From Candidatus Parcubacteria bacterium (GTDB taxonomy: Bacteria > Patescibacteriota > Microgenomatia > UBA12405), in contig JAEWUV010000002.1 of assembly GCA_023396915.1 (NCBI GenBank), positions 86,087-150,086 on the forward strand: a stretch of DNA of 64,000 nucleotides. Reading direction: 5' to 3'. Under the pieces are notes generated by a model, which saw only the letters and a list, made by a program, of their open reading frames with translations, searched no databases and was not told the DNA's origin. Every line of letters starts with the position of its first letter. The stretch's first letter is position 1. Shown piece after piece: positions 323-63,523 of this stretch. A program made the translations under genes and the position numbers.

Positions 323-2650
323 CTATAGACGGTAGATACTGGTTTGACCAGACTGAAAAACAACTTTGGCACCAATTTGTTCAAATTTTTTTGGGTCTAA
401 AGTTTTATATTTTTCGTATTCTTTGGCACCGATAAAAATATATTCAACTTTATATTTTGATAAAAGATCTTTTACTTCAGACAAATTAGTTTCATCTGTT
501 TCTGAATTAAATTCAGTTTTTGGAAACTCCACAGGTAAAACAAGTCTTTGATTGGGATGAATAATCGAAGGGTTTTCTAGGTTATTAACCTTAGCAATTT
601 CAATCCATAAAAATTCATTTTTTAATTCATTTTTGGCAATATTCCAAAGACTGTCTCCTGTTTGTACAGTATAAGCTTTTTGATCTTTATTATTTTCAAT
701 ATTTTCGGTTGATGATGTTGAAAAAAAATTATAGATTTTATCAACATCTGTCTGACGGGCGGCGGGGGCATCGTAACCACCACGCCAGAGCCATTCATGG
801 ACAATCCAACCTTCGACAGTAGGCAAACCGGTAGTAGAGGAAATTTGATTAAAAGTGGTGTAGCTATCGCCTACCGCTTCTAACATAACCGGTTGACTGG
901 AAATATTTTGATTAATCCATAAGACTGCTTGGTAATTATCCGGATAAAGTTTTTCTAGATACTTTAACCCATCTAAACCTTTGTAGTTTTTTAGATCATT
1001 GTAATAGGATTTAATGGCAAAATATGGATAAAACATATGAATAAAAAAAACGGTTAGAAAGCAAAAAAAGTAAATAAACTTAATAATCTTTGATTTAAAA
1101 AGATAAGAAAATCTAATCAGAACATAACCAGAAGAGAGAGAATAAAGGATAAAAGCCTGATACACAAGTTTGAACATGGTATTGGCCCGACGATATTCAT
1201 AAATATAAATGTCTTTGATATAAATTAGTTCCGGAATAAGAATTAATAGTGAGGCAATTAAAATTAACGAAAATACAAAAAAATCAGATTTAGTAATTTT
1301 TTTTCTGAAAGGAATAGTAAGAGAAAAAGGTAGGCAGATTAACCAAAAACCACCATAAAGAATAAGCAATTGATAAAAAGGTGAATGGCCATCGGCAATT
1401 TTTATGCCCTCCATCATGGGGATGAAATTGAGGGAAAATGGATAGGAAAAAAGGTACCAAAAAGCAATCACTAATAAACCGTTGATAAAAGTTTTGGCTA
1501 AATTTCTAATATTAAATTCATTAGCATTAATTAAAAAAGAAAAGACGGCTAGAACTAAGCCATAAACAGCAAAATCCCAGGCGTTGGTCATATAACAAAT
1601 TGATAAAACAAAGCCGGAACCAACGATAAATTTCCAATTAAAAAAGTTTTTACTTTTCTCAACAGTAATAAATAGAAAGGCCAGAAATAAAATAACAATA
1701 AAAATATCATTCATGTGACCGTGAAGATCGGAAACGACAAAACTGTAAAGAGGAAATTCATGGATAGTTTTGTCATTAGTGTCCGGGTCATGACCAATAA
1801 AACGGGTAGCGTCAGGATACCAATAAGAGTTCGTTGCTTTAGAAATGGCTTTTTGATTTAAAATAAAATGATTATTGTTCTGCTGGTAATCAAGTTTGAT
1901 AATTTTATAAAGTGAGTGAAGATTGCCGCCAAAAGTAAGAAGTAAGGCAGAAATAAGACCGGCTAAAATAGCAACACGAAACCCTTTCCTAACCTTTCCC
2001 TTGACAGGGCAAGGAACTAGGTACGTTATATTGGAAACTAAGGAAAAAGCACTGACAAAAGTAAGAGAGCAAACTGTAGCGATGGACAGGTTGTATCCAA
2101 CCGAAGAAATAACAGTAGAGAGTTTGGTGATTAAGGCAAAAATTAAATGACCGAAATAGTAGTAATTGATTGTTTCGCCAGCAAACCACATGTCTTGTGG
2201 AGGTAGAAACTGAGATCTCAAAGCTGAATTAACAAATCCCCAATCCATATATTTTTCTAAGCCCTCAATATCAGGAGCAAAACCCCGAACATAAGACCAT
2301 AAAGTTAAAATCAGAAAAAAAATCAGTTCTTCAAAAATAAAAACACGATAATGTTTTTTGAAATCAGAAAAAAAACTTTTATATGTTTTATTTTTTAGCA
2401 GAAACCAAACATCAAATAAAATAAAAATGGTAATTAAAAATAAGAGTCCGGTATAGGTAAACGGAATAAGTTTAAAGACTCCGAAGATTAGGGAAAAATA
2501 AGTTAGAAGAATCAAAGAGACAGTTTTACTGAAAATATAACCTTTGTCCCAAAATTTATTAAACAGAGAAACGGTTATGGGTAAAGACAGAATTCCCAAC
2601 AAAAAAATAGTTAGCCACCAATTAAAAATGAAATGAAAATCAGAAAACAT
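323..2650 (-). CDS. DUF2298 (Chlor_Arch_YYY) polytopic membrane protein with a C-terminal LysM domain
   Basis: Many transmembrane segments. Carries the signature INYYYFGHL motif. C-terminal YTVQTGDSLWNIAK...NPSIIHPNQRLVLP matches a LysM peptidoglycan-binding domain. Confidence 0.55.
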   Translation of the reverse strand: MFSDFHFIFNWWLTIFLLGILSLPITVSLFNKFWDKGYIFSKTVSLILLTYFSLIFGVFKLIPFTYTGLLFLITIFILFDVWFLLKNKTYKSFFSDFKKHYRVFIFEELIFFLILTLWSYVRGFAPDIEGLEKYMDWGFVNSALRSQFLPPQDMWFAGETINYYYFGHLIFALITKLSTVISSVGYNLSIATVCSLTFVSAFSLVSNITYLVPCPVKGKVRKGFRVAILAGLISALLLTFGGNLHSLYKIIKLDYQQNNNHFILNQKAISKATNSYWYPDATRFIGHDPDTNDKTIHEFPLYSFVVSDLHGHMNDIFIVILFLAFLFITVEKSKNFFNWKFIVGSGFVLSICYMTNAWDFAVYGLVLAVFSFLINANEFNIRNLAKTFINGLLVIAFWYLFSYPFSLNFIPMMEGIKIADGHSPFYQLLILYGGFWLICLPFSLTIPFRKKITKSDFFVFSLILIASLLILIPELIYIKDIYIYEYRRANTMFKLVYQAFILYSLSSGYVLIRFSYLFKSKIIKFIYFFCFLTVFFIHMFYPYFAIKSYYNDLKNYKGLDGLKYLEKLYPDNYQAVLWINQNISSQPVMLEAVGDSYTTFNQISSTTGLPTVEGWIVHEWLWRGGYDAPAARQTDVDKIYNFFSTSSTENIENNKDQKAYTVQTGDSLWNIAKNELKNEFLWIEIAKVNNLENPSIIHPNQRLVLPVEFPKTEFNSETDETNLSEVKDLLSKYKVEYIFIGAKEYEKYKTLDPKKFEQIGAKVVFQSGQTSIYRL
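1981..2016 (+). repeat. Degenerate copy of the REP-like hairpin element, embedded in-frame in a coding sequence
   Basis: The core tttcccttgacagggcaagg is identical to the copies at 15381 and 63482. On the minus strand it encodes PCPVKGKVRKG within the DUF2298 protein. Confidence 0.35.
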
Positions 2651-14658: not shown

Positions 14659-15387
14659 ATGATTGATACACATGCTCATCTGTCCAGCCGGTTTAGTGAG
14701 GAGATAAAAATAGAGGGATTGGATTATGTAGTTTTGTCGGCTAGTTGTCTGCAAGATTCAAAAGACAATTTGGAATTAGCCAAAACTAATAAAAAATTAT
14801 TGCCGGCAATTGGAATTCATCCACAAGAAATTAATGATAGTTTTATCGATTTAGAAAAATTGTTTGACGATAGAGTAGTAGCGATTGGAGAGTGCGGTTT
14901 GGAATTTACTGATGAAGTCAATGAAGGTGATAAGAAAAAACAAGGTGAACTTTTTAAAAAACAAATAGAATTGGCTCAAAAAGTTGATAGACCACTGATT
15001 GTTCATAGCCGACAGGCCAGTGATGAAATGTTGGAAATATTAGGGAATTATAAAAATTTGTCCGGAGTAATTCATTGTTACACCGGGGGTAAAAAAAGAA
15101 TAAAAAAATATTTAGATTTACCTGGAGTGTGGTATTTCGGAATTGACGGGAATTTGACTTATGAACCGGGGCTGGAAGAAGTGGTTAAAAATATACCAAA
15201 AGATAGACTAGTTTTAGAAACTGACTCCCCTTTTCTGACACCGATTCCTCACAGAGGAGAAAAAAATTATCCGGAATATGTAAAATATGTTTATCAAAAA
15301 GTAGCCGAAATCTGGCAAATGAGTTTTGAATCAACCGAAACAATTATCGACGAAAACGCAAAAAGATTATTTAGAATAAAACCCTAA
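14659..15387 (+). CDS. tatD: TatD-family metal-dependent deoxyribonuclease/hydrolase
   Basis: N-terminal MIDTHAHL plus the conserved GECGLE, HSR and LETDSP blocks. Confidence 0.85.
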   Translation: MIDTHAHLSSRFSEEIKIEGLDYVVLSASCLQDSKDNLELAKTNKKLLPAIGIHPQEINDSFIDLEKLFDDRVVAIGECGLEFTDEVNEGDKKKQGELFKKQIELAQKVDRPLIVHSRQASDEMLEILGNYKNLSGVIHCYTGGKKRIKKYLDLPGVWYFGIDGNLTYEPGLEEVVKNIPKDRLVLETDSPFLTPIPHRGEKNYPEYVKYVYQKVAEIWQMSFESTETIIDENAKRLFRIKP

Positions 15388-15422
15388 CCCTTCCCTTTCC
15401 CTTGACAGGGCAAGGGTAAAAG
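15381..15422 (+). repeat. REP-like hairpin element, copy A (accctaaccc head followed by a cccttg-acaggg-caaggg stem-loop)
   Basis: Nearly identical to 63482..63523. It sits between the convergent genes tatD (+) and 15439..15678 (-) and contributes the tatD stop codon. Confidence 0.5.
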
Positions 15423-23584: not shown

Positions 23585-24145
23585 TTAAATTTTAAAATAT
23601 TTATCTTTCTCCCAATTTATAACATTATTTTTAATATATTGTTTAATGGTGGAATACTGTTTTTGGTCTTTGACAATAATATCGTGATAACGAGGTTGCC
23701 AAGCAAAAAAGACGGTTTTAGGATTGATTTGACGGGTAACAGCTGACTTGAACTGTTTTATAACTAAAGGAATAGTTTGAGTAGAACGAATAGCTATTCG
23801 GTGATAAAAATAATTATTGTATCTTTTAGTTAGAGACGCATCATGATGCGTCTCTACAGGGTTAAATGAAGTTGATTCAAGATTTAAAAGTAGGTGGATA
23901 TGATTAGGCATAATTACGAATTCACGAATGAAAATATTTTTGAAATGTTTAAGGATGTCAGTAAGACATTGATTAGCGATTAGTCCCATTTTGGATAATT
24001 CCATTTGTTTATTAATTATTTTGCCAAAGAAATTATTGTGTTGATAAGTACAAATGGTGATGAAGTAAATGCCTGAAGTTGAATAATTGTGATTTTTTAG
24101 ACGAGGAGAAGATAGGCGATATTTGGAGGCAAATTTATTTTCCAC
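23585..24145 (-). CDS. RAYT (REP-associated tyrosine transposase) / IS200-like Y1 HUH transposase family protein, single-domain
   Basis: HUH motif (VIMPNHIHLLL). C-terminal AWQPRYHDIIVKD...IKQYIKNN matches the catalytic Tyr region of the IS200/RAYT family. 186 aa. Confidence 0.65.
   Translation of the reverse strand: MENKFASKYRLSSPRLKNHNYSTSGIYFITICTYQHNNFFGKIINKQMELSKMGLIANQCLTDILKHFKNIFIREFVIMPNHIHLLLNLESTSFNPVETHHDASLTKRYNNYFYHRIAIRSTQTIPLVIKQFKSAVTRQINPKTVFFAWQPRYHDIIVKDQKQYSTIKQYIKNNVINWEKDKYFKI
23831..23856. repeat. Perfect 26-bp palindrome tagagacgcatcatgatgcgtctcta inside the transposase CDS
   Basis: The reverse complement is identical to the forward sequence. It is in-frame and encodes ETHHDASL within 23585..24145. 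Confidence 0.9.
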
Positions 24146-50539: not shown

Positions 50540-52276
50540 TTATTTAACGGTAACACTTTTGGCGAGATTCCTGGGTTTATCCGGATCTAGTCCCTTGTGT
50601 TGGCTAAGATAATAAGCTAAAAGTTGGGCAGTAATAACAGTAGAAATAGCGGTAGAAATACCCAGATCGGCAACGGTTAATTGATCATCAAAAACAGAAT
50701 TCTTTTTTGGAGAAATACCAATTACCCAAGCCCCACGAGATTTGACTTCGGTAGCACTGGAAACAATATCGTCAAAATGTTCGTCATTGGGAGCAATAAC
50801 AATACACGGAGTGCCTGACTCGATTAGGGCAATCGGGCCGTGTTTTAATTCACTAGCAAAAACACTTTCGGAGTGAATATAGGAAACCTCTTTAATTTTG
50901 AGAGAAGTTTCGTGACCAATGGGTAAAAAGTTGCCCCGGCTAATCACAAAAATATGTTCTTTTTGGGAAAGTTTTTTGGCTAAATTATTAATTTTTTGTT
51001 GATATTGATCAGCAAAAATATTTTTAATATCATGAACCAGTGGCGTTAAACCTTCTCCTAAAGCCTTCAAAAATAGAGCAATTTGGGCAGTAAATGTTTT
51101 GGTAGAAAGAACACATTTTTCCGGCCCACAAGGCAAGATTTGGCAAATGTCAGCTAGGCGATGAAGAGTTGAGTATGGAGTATTAATAATGGAGGCAATA
51201 GTAACTTTTTTCTTTTTAACTGAGTTAACTAAGTTGATAACATCAATGGTTTCCCCAGACTGAGAAAAAACTACCAATAAACTTTTTTTGGTTAAAAATT
51301 GGTCGTAAGGATTAATCTCGGAAGCGGAAAAAGAAAAAACAGGTTTGTTAATTTTTTCACTTACTAGAAGCGCATTAAAATAGGCAGCAAAATAAGAAGA
51401 GCCACAGCCGGCAAAAAAGACATGGTCAGCTTTTTTGGCTTTTTTGATAATTTGATTAACAGCGCTGTTAAGATTTTCCTGTTGGATTCTGTTAATAATA
51501 TCTAATTGTTGGTGTATTTCTTTGCTTAAGTAATTAGGATAACCATCAAGTCCGGTACCATTTTGAGATGAGGAGATAGTTTTAATATCATATTTGATCA
51601 GCTTATTTTTTTGAATATCAAAAAGTTTGACAGACTCTGGTGAGATCACAGCCATTTGGTTATCTTCTAAAAAGATAAATTTATCTGTAAGATCAGCTAA
51701 AGCATTCATGTCAGAAGCAATGAAATTTTCTTTGTCACCAAAACCAACAACCAAAGGAGAACCATTTTTGGCAACAATTAACTGATTATCATCATGTTTG
51801 ATAACAGCGATAGCATTTAGACCCTGAAGATCTAAAAATGCCAATCTGACAGACTCCTTAAAATCATTTTTTTTGTTATATTCCTCAACTAACTGGACAA
51901 TAACCTCACTATCGGTTTCAGTAATAAATTTATGGCCTTGGTTTTTTAATTGACTTTTAAGCTGTTGATAATTTTCGACGATACCGTTGTGAACCAAAGC
52001 AATCTTTTTATCAGAGCTAAAATGAGGATGGCAATTACAAAGCGTTATACCACCGTGGGTAGCCCATCGAGTATGACCAATAGAAATAGAAGATTCCGGG
52101 ATATTTTGGGGTTTGCCGGTAATTTTGCCTAAATGTTTTTCGTTAATTAAACTTTTGGGGGTATCAACAACTATACCCCAACTATCGTAACCCCGATATT
52201 CAAGGCTTTTAAGACCATTAAAAACTAAATTACTATTATGTTTTCGTAAACCAGTGAAACCAAAAATTCCGCACAT
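50540..52276 (-). CDS. glmS: Glutamine--fructose-6-phosphate aminotransferase (isomerising)
   Basis: MCGIFGF N-terminal nucleophile. Two SIS domains. Strong AAGGAG Shine-Dalgarno sequence 5 nt upstream of the ATG. Confidence 0.9.
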   Translation of the reverse strand: MCGIFGFTGLRKHNSNLVFNGLKSLEYRGYDSWGIVVDTPKSLINEKHLGKITGKPQNIPESSISIGHTRWATHGGITLCNCHPHFSSDKKIALVHNGIVENYQQLKSQLKNQGHKFITETDSEVIVQLVEEYNKKNDFKESVRLAFLDLQGLNAIAVIKHDDNQLIVAKNGSPLVVGFGDKENFIASDMNALADLTDKFIFLEDNQMAVISPESVKLFDIQKNKLIKYDIKTISSSQNGTGLDGYPNYLSKEIHQQLDIINRIQQENLNSAVNQIIKKAKKADHVFFAGCGSSYFAAYFNALLVSEKINKPVFSFSASEINPYDQFLTKKSLLVVFSQSGETIDVINLVNSVKKKKVTIASIINTPYSTLHRLADICQILPCGPEKCVLSTKTFTAQIALFLKALGEGLTPLVHDIKNIFADQYQQKINNLAKKLSQKEHIFVISRGNFLPIGHETSLKIKEVSYIHSESVFASELKHGPIALIESGTPCIVIAPNDEHFDDIVSSATEVKSRGAWVIGISPKKNSVFDDQLTVADLGISTAISTVITAQLLAYYLSQHKGLDPDKPRNLAKSVTVK

Positions 52277-52535
52277 AAAAACTCCTTTTAGGACTATAAG
52301 CCCTTAATGAACTTTTAAATGGGATGGTCATCAGAGCAAATTTTTCTTTTCAAAAAATTTTTTAGGTTGTCTGATACAACCTGAGGGTACCCGCAGATGG
52401 TTCGAATTCCCCCTTCCTCGTATCCCCGACTTGTCGGGGCCACACGCTTATATTGTTAATAAAGACAACATCCTTAAACAAGTGTATCAAAATAGCAAAA
52501 TTAAGTCTAATTAAGGTGGTAAAATTGCCTATCCA

Positions 52536-63200: not shown

Positions 63201-63479
63201 TACAAAGTCCATGACGGTAAAAGCCCAAATGTAGTTGATGTGATTGAATCGAAAAAAATTTCTTTGGTAATTAATTTGAGTAAAAAAAGAATTGACAGTG
63301 TTAAAAATTACAAAGACTATATAACTGATGGTTATTTAATCCGTCGAGCGACAGTGGATAATAATATTCCATTGTTTACCGACTTGGGGTCAGCCAGATT
63401 TTTCGTCAGAGCATTGGAGAAATATAAAATCGATCAGGTAAGCACTAAATCTTGGGACGAGTATGTGAAGATGAAATAA
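60273..63479 (+). CDS. carB: Carbamoyl-phosphate synthase large subunit
   Basis: 1068 aa. Duplicated ATP-grasp halves, an oligomerisation domain and a C-terminal MGS-like domain. Confidence 0.9.
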   Translation: MKKIKKVIILGSGALKIGEAGEFDYSGSQAIKALKEEGVKTILINPNIATIQTSDFLADKVYFLPVNTHFVEEVIKKEKPDGILLSFGGQTALNCGIDLYKEGILEKYGVEVLGTPISAIVLSEDRSKFAKHLQKIGEPIPASMTVKSVHQIKDVEKNIGFPVMVRAAYTLGGQKSGVAHNQKELETIVTEALVFAPQVLIEKYLYHFKELEYEIVRDKNDNCVAVCNMENFDPMGVHTGESIVTAPSQTLTNAEHQMLRQSAINIVRSLGVVGECNVQFALNPDKREFYVIELNARLSRSSALASKATGYPLAYVAAKLILGKNITEIQNQVTKITQSCFEPALDYIVVKIPRWDLNKFKGAIDKIDSSMKSVGEVMAIGRSFEEAIQKAVRMLELGASGVTSDKFKNLDKKELLERITNANTTRLFAITEALSRGISVDLIYKLSGVDEWFLNGLKRIVEIEKELNKTKKLDKESLTRYKQNGLSDKRIGQLIGKTELEVRKIRKELGVVPSVLQIDTLAGEFPAQTNYLYITYNASHHDVKPLGKTGVMVLGSGPYRIGSSVEFDWSCVNTALSLKDHKKKSIIVNCNPETVSTDYDISERLYFEELTFERIADIYDFETSFGVVISVGGQTPNNLAEGLDNYGAPILGTKAKDIDGAEDRNKFSALLDKLEIEQPEWDSFSDLKSALKFANKVGYPVLVRPSYVLSGSAMSVSYNDDDLKDLLNKTAEVNKEHQVTISKFISEAKEIEFDGVAQKGEIQVFAISEHIENAGVHSGDASIIYPAVTMYLHTEKQIIEAAKRMVKALNITGPFNIQFMAKENNIFVIELNIRASRTFPFISKATGINFIKVAVDSFFGVSKKHEVEYPNQVLVKVPQFSFSRLKGADPVLRVEMASTGEVACFGEDAEDAYLKAIYSTGMKMDKKAVLLSLGGDINKERFLESVWRLKKLGFAIYATDGTCQYLKKNGFKTKLVYKVHDGKSPNVVDVIESKKISLVINLSKKRIDSVKNYKDYITDGYLIRRATVDNNIPLFTDLGSARFFVRALEKYKIDQVSTKSWDEYVKMK

Positions 63480-63481
63480 AA

Positions 63482-63523
63482 ACCCTAACCCTCCCCTTTC
63501 CCTTGACAGGGCAAGGGTAAAAC
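63482..63523 (+). repeat. REP-like hairpin element, copy B
   Basis: accctaaccctcccctttcccttgacagggcaagggtaaaac is near-identical to copy A. It lies between the convergent carB (+) and SufB/D (-) genes. Confidence 0.5.

Follow-up and report, generated by a model that had tools for sequence, protein, structure and literature searches.

What is the short palindromic element that recurs in a 64,000-nucleotide stretch of a Candidatus Parcubacteria contig (hereafter the window), and which enzyme, if any, is its partner? The original prediction paired it with a protein encoded at 23585..24145, a REP-associated tyrosine transposase (RAYT), and saw in the two a repetitive extragenic palindrome (REP)/RAYT system. 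We found that the window does hold members of a dispersed family of REP-like hairpins, but the link to the RAYT failed, as the latter has a GTAG palindrome of its own. The explanation we favor, and which the comparisons below make probable, is that the window sequences, each a non-autonomous solo copy, belong to a family of selfish hairpin repeats that runs through the lineage Candidatus Shapirobacteria (Patescibacteria, or candidate phyla radiation, CPR) and is associated with DUF559 endonuclease genes. The DNA surveyed for the source genome comprised the window and 9.5 kb beyond it, that is, 73.5 kb of a 906,714-bp metagenomic scaffold whose sequence is identical to that of the window where they overlap, and the window proteins were nearest to those of Candidatus Shapirobacteria.

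The 20-mer TTTCCCTTGACAGGGCAAGG, the core of the element, matched the window exactly three times (at 1995, 15396, and 63497), always on the + strand, where the chance expectation is 0; 100 dinucleotide-preserving shuffles yielded zero matches. A repeat finder returned a sole genuine repeat family in the window (D3), and looser patterns of the hairpin element revealed no copies in the 64 kb beyond these three. The element consists of AAACCC, a C-tract head and the hairpin CCCTT-T-CCCT-TGAC-AGGG-C-AAGGG, which folds into an outer stem (CCCTT/AAGGG), a T.C mismatch, an inner stem (CCCT/AGGG), and the loop TGAC; we refer to it as the CCCT element. Two near-identical copies in the same orientation had been proposed at 15381..15422 and 63482..63523, and both are present, with limits refined to 15379-15416 and 63480-63517. 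Copy 1 (15379..15416, + strand) is a 38-nt singlet in which the head AAACCC-TAA-CCC-TT-CCC-TTT precedes a hairpin pairing 15393-15397 with 15412-15416 and 15399-15402 with 15407-15410 around the loop TGAC (15403-15406), with a mismatch between T15398 and C15411. Copy 2 (63480..63517, + strand), also a singlet, differs from copy 1 by one base and pairs 63494-63498 with 63513-63517 and 63500-63503 with 63508-63511. The stem-loop is indeed predicted to form (-7 to -8.4 kcal/mol as DNA, -13 to -15 kcal/mol as RNA), but it is longer than first described, having an outer as well as an inner stem. With a stem of 9-10 bp and one mismatch, the element has the size and shape of a REP, a 20-40 nt imperfect palindrome.

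Copies 1 and 2 are each located at a convergent gene junction, the former between tatD and a minus-strand gene for a 79-amino-acid thioredoxin-like protein, the latter between carB, whose identity was confirmed, and a SufBD-family gene. While these neighbors are as predicted, copy 1 is not confined to the gap: the tatD stop codon (15385-15387) is the TAA within its head, so that TatD ends in ...RIKP*, and reading the sequence without the 38 nt gives ...RI*, ending at a TAA. Copy 2 begins right after the carB stop codon (63477-63479), with 75 nt to the end of the convergent gene. A third, degenerate copy had been suspected at 1981..2016. It exists as copy 3 (1979..2015, + strand; degenerate head AAACCCTTTCCTAACC, inner hairpin intact), but it is not extragenic, since it lies antisense and in frame inside the minus-strand open reading frame (ORF) 323..2650, which codes for a membrane protein with DUF2298 and LysM domains, and encodes VPCPVKGKVRKGF in a variable loop. 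Compared with homologues that are 74-78% identical, this protein shows a net gain of 6 amino acids plus replaced residues at copy 3. No orthologous junctions (empty sites) for copies 1 and 2 were found among the compared loci.

An exact scan for the 20-mer in one genome per species matched 48 loci (numbered here with the prefix L). The head is missing from three of them (Bradyrhizobium, Chitinophaga, Lachnospiraceae), which are chance matches; the other 45 all belong to low-GC, Shapirobacteria-type metagenome-assembled genomes (MAGs), and the spread of the core beyond the window was thereby borne out. These MAGs are labeled Shapirobacteria, Patescibacteria or 'uncultured Gammaproteobacteria'. 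The last title is carried by L001, L002, L004-L007, L009, L012-L015, L018, L019, L026, L027, and L030 and likewise by L032, L033, L038, L039, L043, L046, and L048. It is probably generic or wrong because the loci so titled have 29-42% GC and have gene order and 63-87% protein identity in common with Shapirobacteria loci. All 45 loci present the form AAACCC-TAA/TAT/TTT-CCC(C)-N-CCC(C)-TTT-CCCTTGACAGGG-CAAGGG(G).

A hidden Markov model (HMM) built from the exact copies retrieved the variants B (...CCCTTCCCTTGACAGGGCAGGG), D (TCCTTCCCTTGACAGGGCAGGAC) and B' (AAACCCCTCAGT, a variable hairpin, then CCAGCTCCCCTTGACAGGGGAGC), as well as copies with a nested 24-nt hairpin. In the latter, an insertion of ~24 nt, TACCCTCTYCGGGGTATCTATGGA, itself a hairpin, stands between head and hairpin (L047:161-228, L026:4075-4133, L003:546-603), which points to either an optional stem or another small element. 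Each copy has the fixed 5' end AAACCC, a head whose C-tracts are separated by spacers that vary, and a hairpin of 9-10 bp that includes the T.C mismatch. Aligning 49 distinct copies revealed 91% pairing in the stem, an invariant loop (49/49) and a constant hairpin top, CCC-TTGACA-GGG. Changes on both sides of the stem were seen at three pairs (UA to CG 13 times, CG to UA three times, and AU, CG or UA at the foot), counts that are inflated by the relatedness of the copies, and the stem types CCCTT/AAGGG, CCCC../..GGGG, TCCT/AGGA, and GCTC/GAGC are mutually compensatory. The family occurs as ~38-nt singlets, as ~100-nt tail-to-tail inverted doublets (L021, L043, L028, L023, L029, L019, L014), which are predicted to fold as a single closed structure, and as repeat-gene-repeat units of ~520-560 bp. 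All three window copies are singlets, with no doublet among them.

The gene within these units was recognized by clustering the ORFs near elements, which uncovered a family of small proteins (~135 amino acids) matching Pfam DUF559 (E ~1e-28) and PDB 3HRL (E 2e-12). Inverted copies of the element bracket the DUF559 genes, heads outward and hairpins inward, at L009/L045/L134-139, L028, L034, and L046, and the bracketed ORF terminates within the element (...PALSREGMGKGF*). The gene is frameshifted at L034, and L016 has a DUF559 gene with a variant repeat. At L014, a site orthologous to L009/L045, the gene is absent and the arms are fused into one 64-nt palindrome. Additional CPR loci (L132 and L140-143) are unbiased with respect to the element because they were retrieved by the protein alone. 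Their DUF559 proteins are 47% identical to the first set and are surrounded by ~55-nt inverted repeats (AAAACCCTCCGTCTC, a variable hairpin, then CCACCTCCCTTGACAGGGAGG) that carry the same CCCTTGACAGGG hairpin. Units of this kind occur in at least six Shapirobacteria/CPR contexts. Comparable arrangements were found in Nitrospirota (L133:2850-3480), where GACCTCCCCTGACCCCTCCTTGSCAAGGAGGGG lies on both sides of a DUF559 gene, in Vibrio hyugaensis (L144:1240-2140), where the gene is flanked by AACCCCTCCCTAACCCTCCCCTT-AGAA-AGGGGAGGGG, with CCCTAACCCTCCCC contained in the repeat and with a second type at the stop codon, and in an unclassified bacterium (L145:1816-1975) with similar C-tract hairpin flanks. 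In a published study, DUF559 is one of the protein families over-represented as predicted inversion targets, a class with inverted repeats on either side (PMC9881135). A broader and clearly more tentative idea is that small DUF559 nucleases could be a second, RAYT-independent class of repeat-associated enzymes across CPR, Vibrio, and Nitrospirota, which might create and maintain dispersed families of C-tract-plus-hairpin repeats, including that of the window with its copies turned into coding sequence.

Considering orthology, the 45 loci reduce to ~10-12 distinct neighborhoods. Of 49 exact copies, 26 have their head placed between -9 and +12 nt relative to the stop codon of a same-strand gene upstream, and in the -9 class this gene is ended by the element's own TAA. 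Between unidirectional genes, we tallied ~12 sense and ~6 antisense copies once orthologues were collapsed, and several of the antisense ones are doublet halves with a sense-oriented partner. Some copies are found in frame within conserved genes. An A-type element is in frame in a loop of TsaE in L033 and L018 (KTLTPxPFPLTGQGE) and a B-type one in L037, whereas the same loop is empty in L048 and L015, even though these are nearer to L033 (78-87% identical). In pyrG, coding for CTP synthase (L023:5640-7364, minus strand), an in-frame inverted doublet encodes NPNPTLSLDRARVFDLPCQGEVAEGRRG, ~28 amino acids located in the glutamine amidotransferase domain directly before the conserved motif ERHRHRYEV. 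Another copy is in frame and antisense in pheT. The TsaE loop pattern and the in-frame copies point to gain and loss at orthologous sites, as judged from these comparisons. Rickettsia palindromic elements (RPEs) are in-frame insertions in genes, as reportedly described by Ogata et al. in 2000; likewise, the CCCT element is in frame in conserved genes and absent from close homologues in the cases of the DUF2298 gene, tsaE, pyrG, and pheT. We also observed that Sua5/YrdC and TsaE are fused in one ORF (L018:4231-5355, minus strand; L033:4669-5928, + strand; L048, L015, L037), and that the Sua5-TsaE linker of L018, KKPFGTSYHLSLDRTQVK, is itself element-like and contains a nested hairpin (L018:4639-4686). 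Beside one conserved element site (L012:1320-4367, L001, L024, L044), small paralogous genes with an N-terminal methylation (type IV pilin-like) motif are arrayed in tandem, up to seven at a time.

The window ORF 23585..24145 (minus strand, GTG start, 186 amino acids) was rightly taken for a RAYT, or TnpA_REP-type HUH-Y1 protein. Besides carrying HUH, W, and Y...N motifs, it passes the Pfam Y1_Tnp model (30.4 bits, cutoff 23) and reaches 48 bits with NCBIfam REP_Tyr_transpos, below the cutoff of 80. The residues H82-I-H84, W149, and Y170...N174 are invariant in 31 homologues; a catalytic Y with an N four residues on characterizes TnpA_REP proteins (PMC6006769). The gene is wedged between MgsA/RarA-type and MGMT-like genes, with no intergenic flanks. 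A tblastn self-match brought out a perfect palindrome, GTAGAGACGCATCATGATGCGTCTCTA, in frame within the RAYT gene (23831..23857, minus strand). By its sequence, it is a 'double-foot' GTAG REP with one foot degenerated to TTAG, and it is the RAYT's own. The family alignment has a hypervariable insert at this position, and its peptides (VETHHDASL, VETRHGASLQ, CRDVLQNVST, and others, in 31 homologues) are translated palindromes. We surveyed Shapirobacteria loci fetched via RAYT homologues and 80 metagenome loci with distant relatives, and the palindrome GTAGAGACG[CT]-N8-[AG]CGTCTCTAC was present both within RAYT homologues and on their upstream and downstream sides, across many taxa, with 109 matches including Shapirobacteria L129-L131 and the window RAYT gene. 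Solo GTAG palindromes were also seen in Shapirobacteria loci L026, L028, L029, L032, and L040, and the same 27-mer as in the window RAYT gene is located at L026:1807-1834. There (L026:1740-1900), the solo palindrome lies between the inverted sequences ATCATTGCGAGGAGC... and ...GGTTCGCAATGATG, which may be another repeat type. According to Quentin et al. (2018, PMC6006769), the gene in TnpA_REP subclass 2.4 is flanked by double-foot GT[AG]G...C[TC]AC REPs, and these can also be inserted in frame in the stretch from HuH to Y. The window RAYT and its internal palindrome, rather than the CCCT element, fit this subclass, with the difference that the window RAYT has only the internal REP and no flanking ones; its relatives have flanking and internal copies. 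To judge from these features, the window RAYT belongs to a different, already described REP system and is not the partner of the element.

That the CCCT elements are REPs mobilized by this RAYT is the least likely of the explanations we weighed, and we consider it highly improbable. It would fit with the location, 8 kb from copy 1, of a gene for a RAYT-type protein whose HUH and Y motifs are intact, with the frequency of RAYT homologues in Shapirobacteria, with the presence of a RAYT homologue and an element, though far apart, on contig CAZOQV010000001.1, and with the REP-like character of the elements, which are short imperfect palindromes found mostly at gene 3' ends. However, the foot of a REP hairpin carries the conserved tetranucleotide GTAG or GTGG (or CGTC) (PMC3733652, PMC6006769), and none of these tags is found in the element in the 49-copy alignment. 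A different palindrome, GTAGAGACG..CGTCTCTAC, consistently accompanies the RAYT family, in the published subclass 2.4 pattern. Neither the 582 kb that surround the 80 distant RAYT relatives nor 44 kb in the vicinity of Shapirobacteria RAYTs contained a CCCT element, no RAYT homologue was detected in ~330 kb around CCCT elements, and copies of the element do not flank the RAYT gene as REPs flank a cognate one. The pairing is thus not supported, because the RAYT has its own REP, the two show no mutual proximity and the RAYT lacks flanking copies. A palindromic repeat and a nearby RAYT need not be cognate, as this case shows: the coding sequence of the RAYT contains a REP of its own.

Selection for a host cis-acting signal is a more serious contender, either as a 3'-end RNA hairpin (a stabilizer or a non-canonical, possibly Rho-type terminator) or as a site for a DNA- or RNA-binding protein. 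About half of the copies have a sense-oriented head that adjoins a stop codon, the element persists at orthologous positions across species, and the loop is invariant while the stem covaries; moreover, the head is C-rich and G-free, which a Rho-type terminator might use, and its other strand reads as a quadruplex-type motif (G3N2-3 x4). Bidirectional terminators had in fact been expected at the convergent junctions, but intrinsic (Rho-independent) termination was rejected: neither strand has a U-tract after the hairpin (TAAAA on the + strand, AAGGGTTAGGG before TTTT on the - strand), and a terminator scan gave nothing at the elements, copies 1 and 2 included. Copies in either orientation within housekeeping coding sequences, an orientation bias of just ~12 vs. 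~6 after collapsing orthologues, some copies that come after a canonical terminator (L001/L012/L044), close relatives that differ in presence or absence at one site, and inverted copies that bracket a nuclease gene also make a host signal unlikely, and variants with CC instead of CCC tracts argue against a strict need for a G-quadruplex. DUF559 could instead be a free-standing, homing-type endonuclease gene that invades or targets pre-existing palindromes, the repeats spreading otherwise or not at all. The Vsr-like nucleases do include a homing endonuclease family: a survey of the PD-(D/E)XK superfamily groups VSR, DUF559, and the homing endonuclease 3R3P/I-Bth0305I (PMC3424549). The gene-less fused palindrome at an orthologous site (L014 vs. 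L009/L045) and an identical DUF559 protein (P0194) that is always in one context would also be explained. Yet both flanks of DUF559 are complete elements with their own hairpins rather than one split palindrome, DUF559 proteins just 47% identical and in unrelated contexts have the same hairpin in their flanking repeats, and the singlets in coding loops are left unexplained, so that we find a homing gene doubtful as the origin of the pattern.

The association with DUF559 remains our preferred explanation, and several observations weigh against it. No transposition events were observed, copy number is modest (three in the 73.5 kb of the source scaffold, and 1-10 exact 20-mer copies per related MAG, plus variants), and many matches at orthologous positions in different species imply that most copies are old. 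Neither the TsaE filled/empty sites nor other junctions had a target-site duplication, a conserved flank or a defined target. The window and the 9.5 kb beyond it contain no DUF559 gene, the flanking repeats of Vibrio and Nitrospirota differ in orientation, and the single context of P0194, already mentioned, is another such point. Most context statistics carry an ascertainment bias as they come from loci retrieved for containing the element. Finally, we know of no PD-(D/E)XK Vsr-like protein that is a transposase.

With DUF559 as the partner of the repeats, the following scenario can be proposed. We infer active transposition with DUF559 as the enzyme, and we read the singlets as MITE- or REP-like derivatives of a DUF559 cassette (MITE, miniature inverted-repeat transposable element), non-autonomous, which would spread and occasionally be lost within these genomes. 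The element would mostly insert so that its head comes to lie no more than a few bases from the end of a gene, and would sometimes be tolerated in frame in protein surface loops. The DUF559 nuclease may recognize and nick the hairpin, the conserved loop and perhaps the T.C mismatch being the determinants, and by analogy it could mobilize or maintain the repeats as RAYTs do for REPs. The window copies themselves are probably passive, inert passengers with side effects: copy 1 supplies tatD with its stop codon and with a hairpin at the 3' end, copy 2 places such a hairpin behind carB, and copy 3 accounts for 13 codons of the DUF2298 loop.

Among known systems, the REP/REPIN and RAYT pairs of E. 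coli, Pseudomonas, and Stenotrophomonas share much with the CCCT family, namely short imperfect palindromes mostly at gene 3' ends, singlets and inverted doublets, occasional intragenic copies, long conservation, and inverted copies around a small single-domain nuclease gene. In contrast, the CCCT element has no GTAG/GTGG/CGTC tag, a long C-tract head 5' of the hairpin and an apparently low copy number (REPs number tens to hundreds per genome), and it brackets a DUF559 PD-(D/E)XK gene rather than an HUH-Y1 gene, the RAYT of the same genome having a different REP. RPEs and intragenic REPs (Di Nocera et al., 2013, PMC3733652) are similar in being in-frame palindromes in housekeeping genes of a reduced genome, giving short peptides in tolerated loops, with some repeat ends providing stop codons. 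Unlike RPEs, the element is of another sequence family and lineage, its singlets are shorter than most RPEs, and it brackets a nuclease gene. The series from full unit to gene-less doublet to solo end, together with presumed non-autonomy, is reminiscent of MITEs that arose from autonomous elements through internal deletion (Correia/NEMIS, IS200/IS605-derived PATEs), but MITEs have terminal inverted repeats and a target-site duplication, whereas the singlets have one end only and no duplication was seen, and the putative enzyme is outside the known transposase classes. As for the Vsr-like/DUF559 endonucleases (PDB 3HRL; Vsr; I-Bth0305I), the element-bracketed proteins resemble them in matching both DUF559 and 3HRL but stand apart by their repeats: in the literature searched, we found no description of DUF559, or of any other member, linked to dispersed hairpin repeats.

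CPR/Patescibacteria genomes are tiny and tightly packed, which makes persistent selfish repeats unexpected there, and our literature search found no description of such repeats in these bacteria. Through its presence in essential genes (tsaE, pyrG, pheT, DUF2298) and at stop codons, the element shapes protein sequence, like RPEs in Rickettsia. The CCCT family adds a new variety to the short palindromic repeats of mobile type, one that belongs to a CPR lineage and is found in coding sequence as RPEs are; a RAYT with an internal REP was already known. The association with DUF559, if functional, would be new. Should the partnership hold true, a very widespread domain that lacks an assigned function would acquire one, and the few enzymes known to maintain bacterial repeat families would be joined by a further class of nuclease.

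Several other roles were considered for the element and rejected. As a promoter, with the TTGACA of the loop region as -35, it has a plausible -10 at 16-18 nt in only 11 of 104 hairpins, about the AT-rich background, and in none of the window copies. No tRNA or tmRNA was found beside elements, where a TGGCGAGC-like motif was considered. A phage origin was rejected as well, the 19-mer having no match in viral contigs. A strict G-quadruplex or i-motif requirement is at odds with the D-type and B'-type variants, which lack four C3 tracts. For a known RNA family, Rfam 15 gave only noise at E up to 10 around copy 1. In the scan of the whole window, only a glmS ribozyme/riboswitch reached threshold (Rfam RF00234, 52.9 bits; 52329-52459, minus strand). 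It lies directly upstream of the minus-strand ORF 50540..52276, whose Pfam GATase and SIS domains fit glmS. Three copies are too few to reveal a replication-strand bias. GC skew is positive throughout on the + strand (+0.10 to +0.23 over 1-64000). AT skew is mostly positive as well and most long ORFs are on the - strand, so that the coding strand is C- and T-rich, which is unusual.

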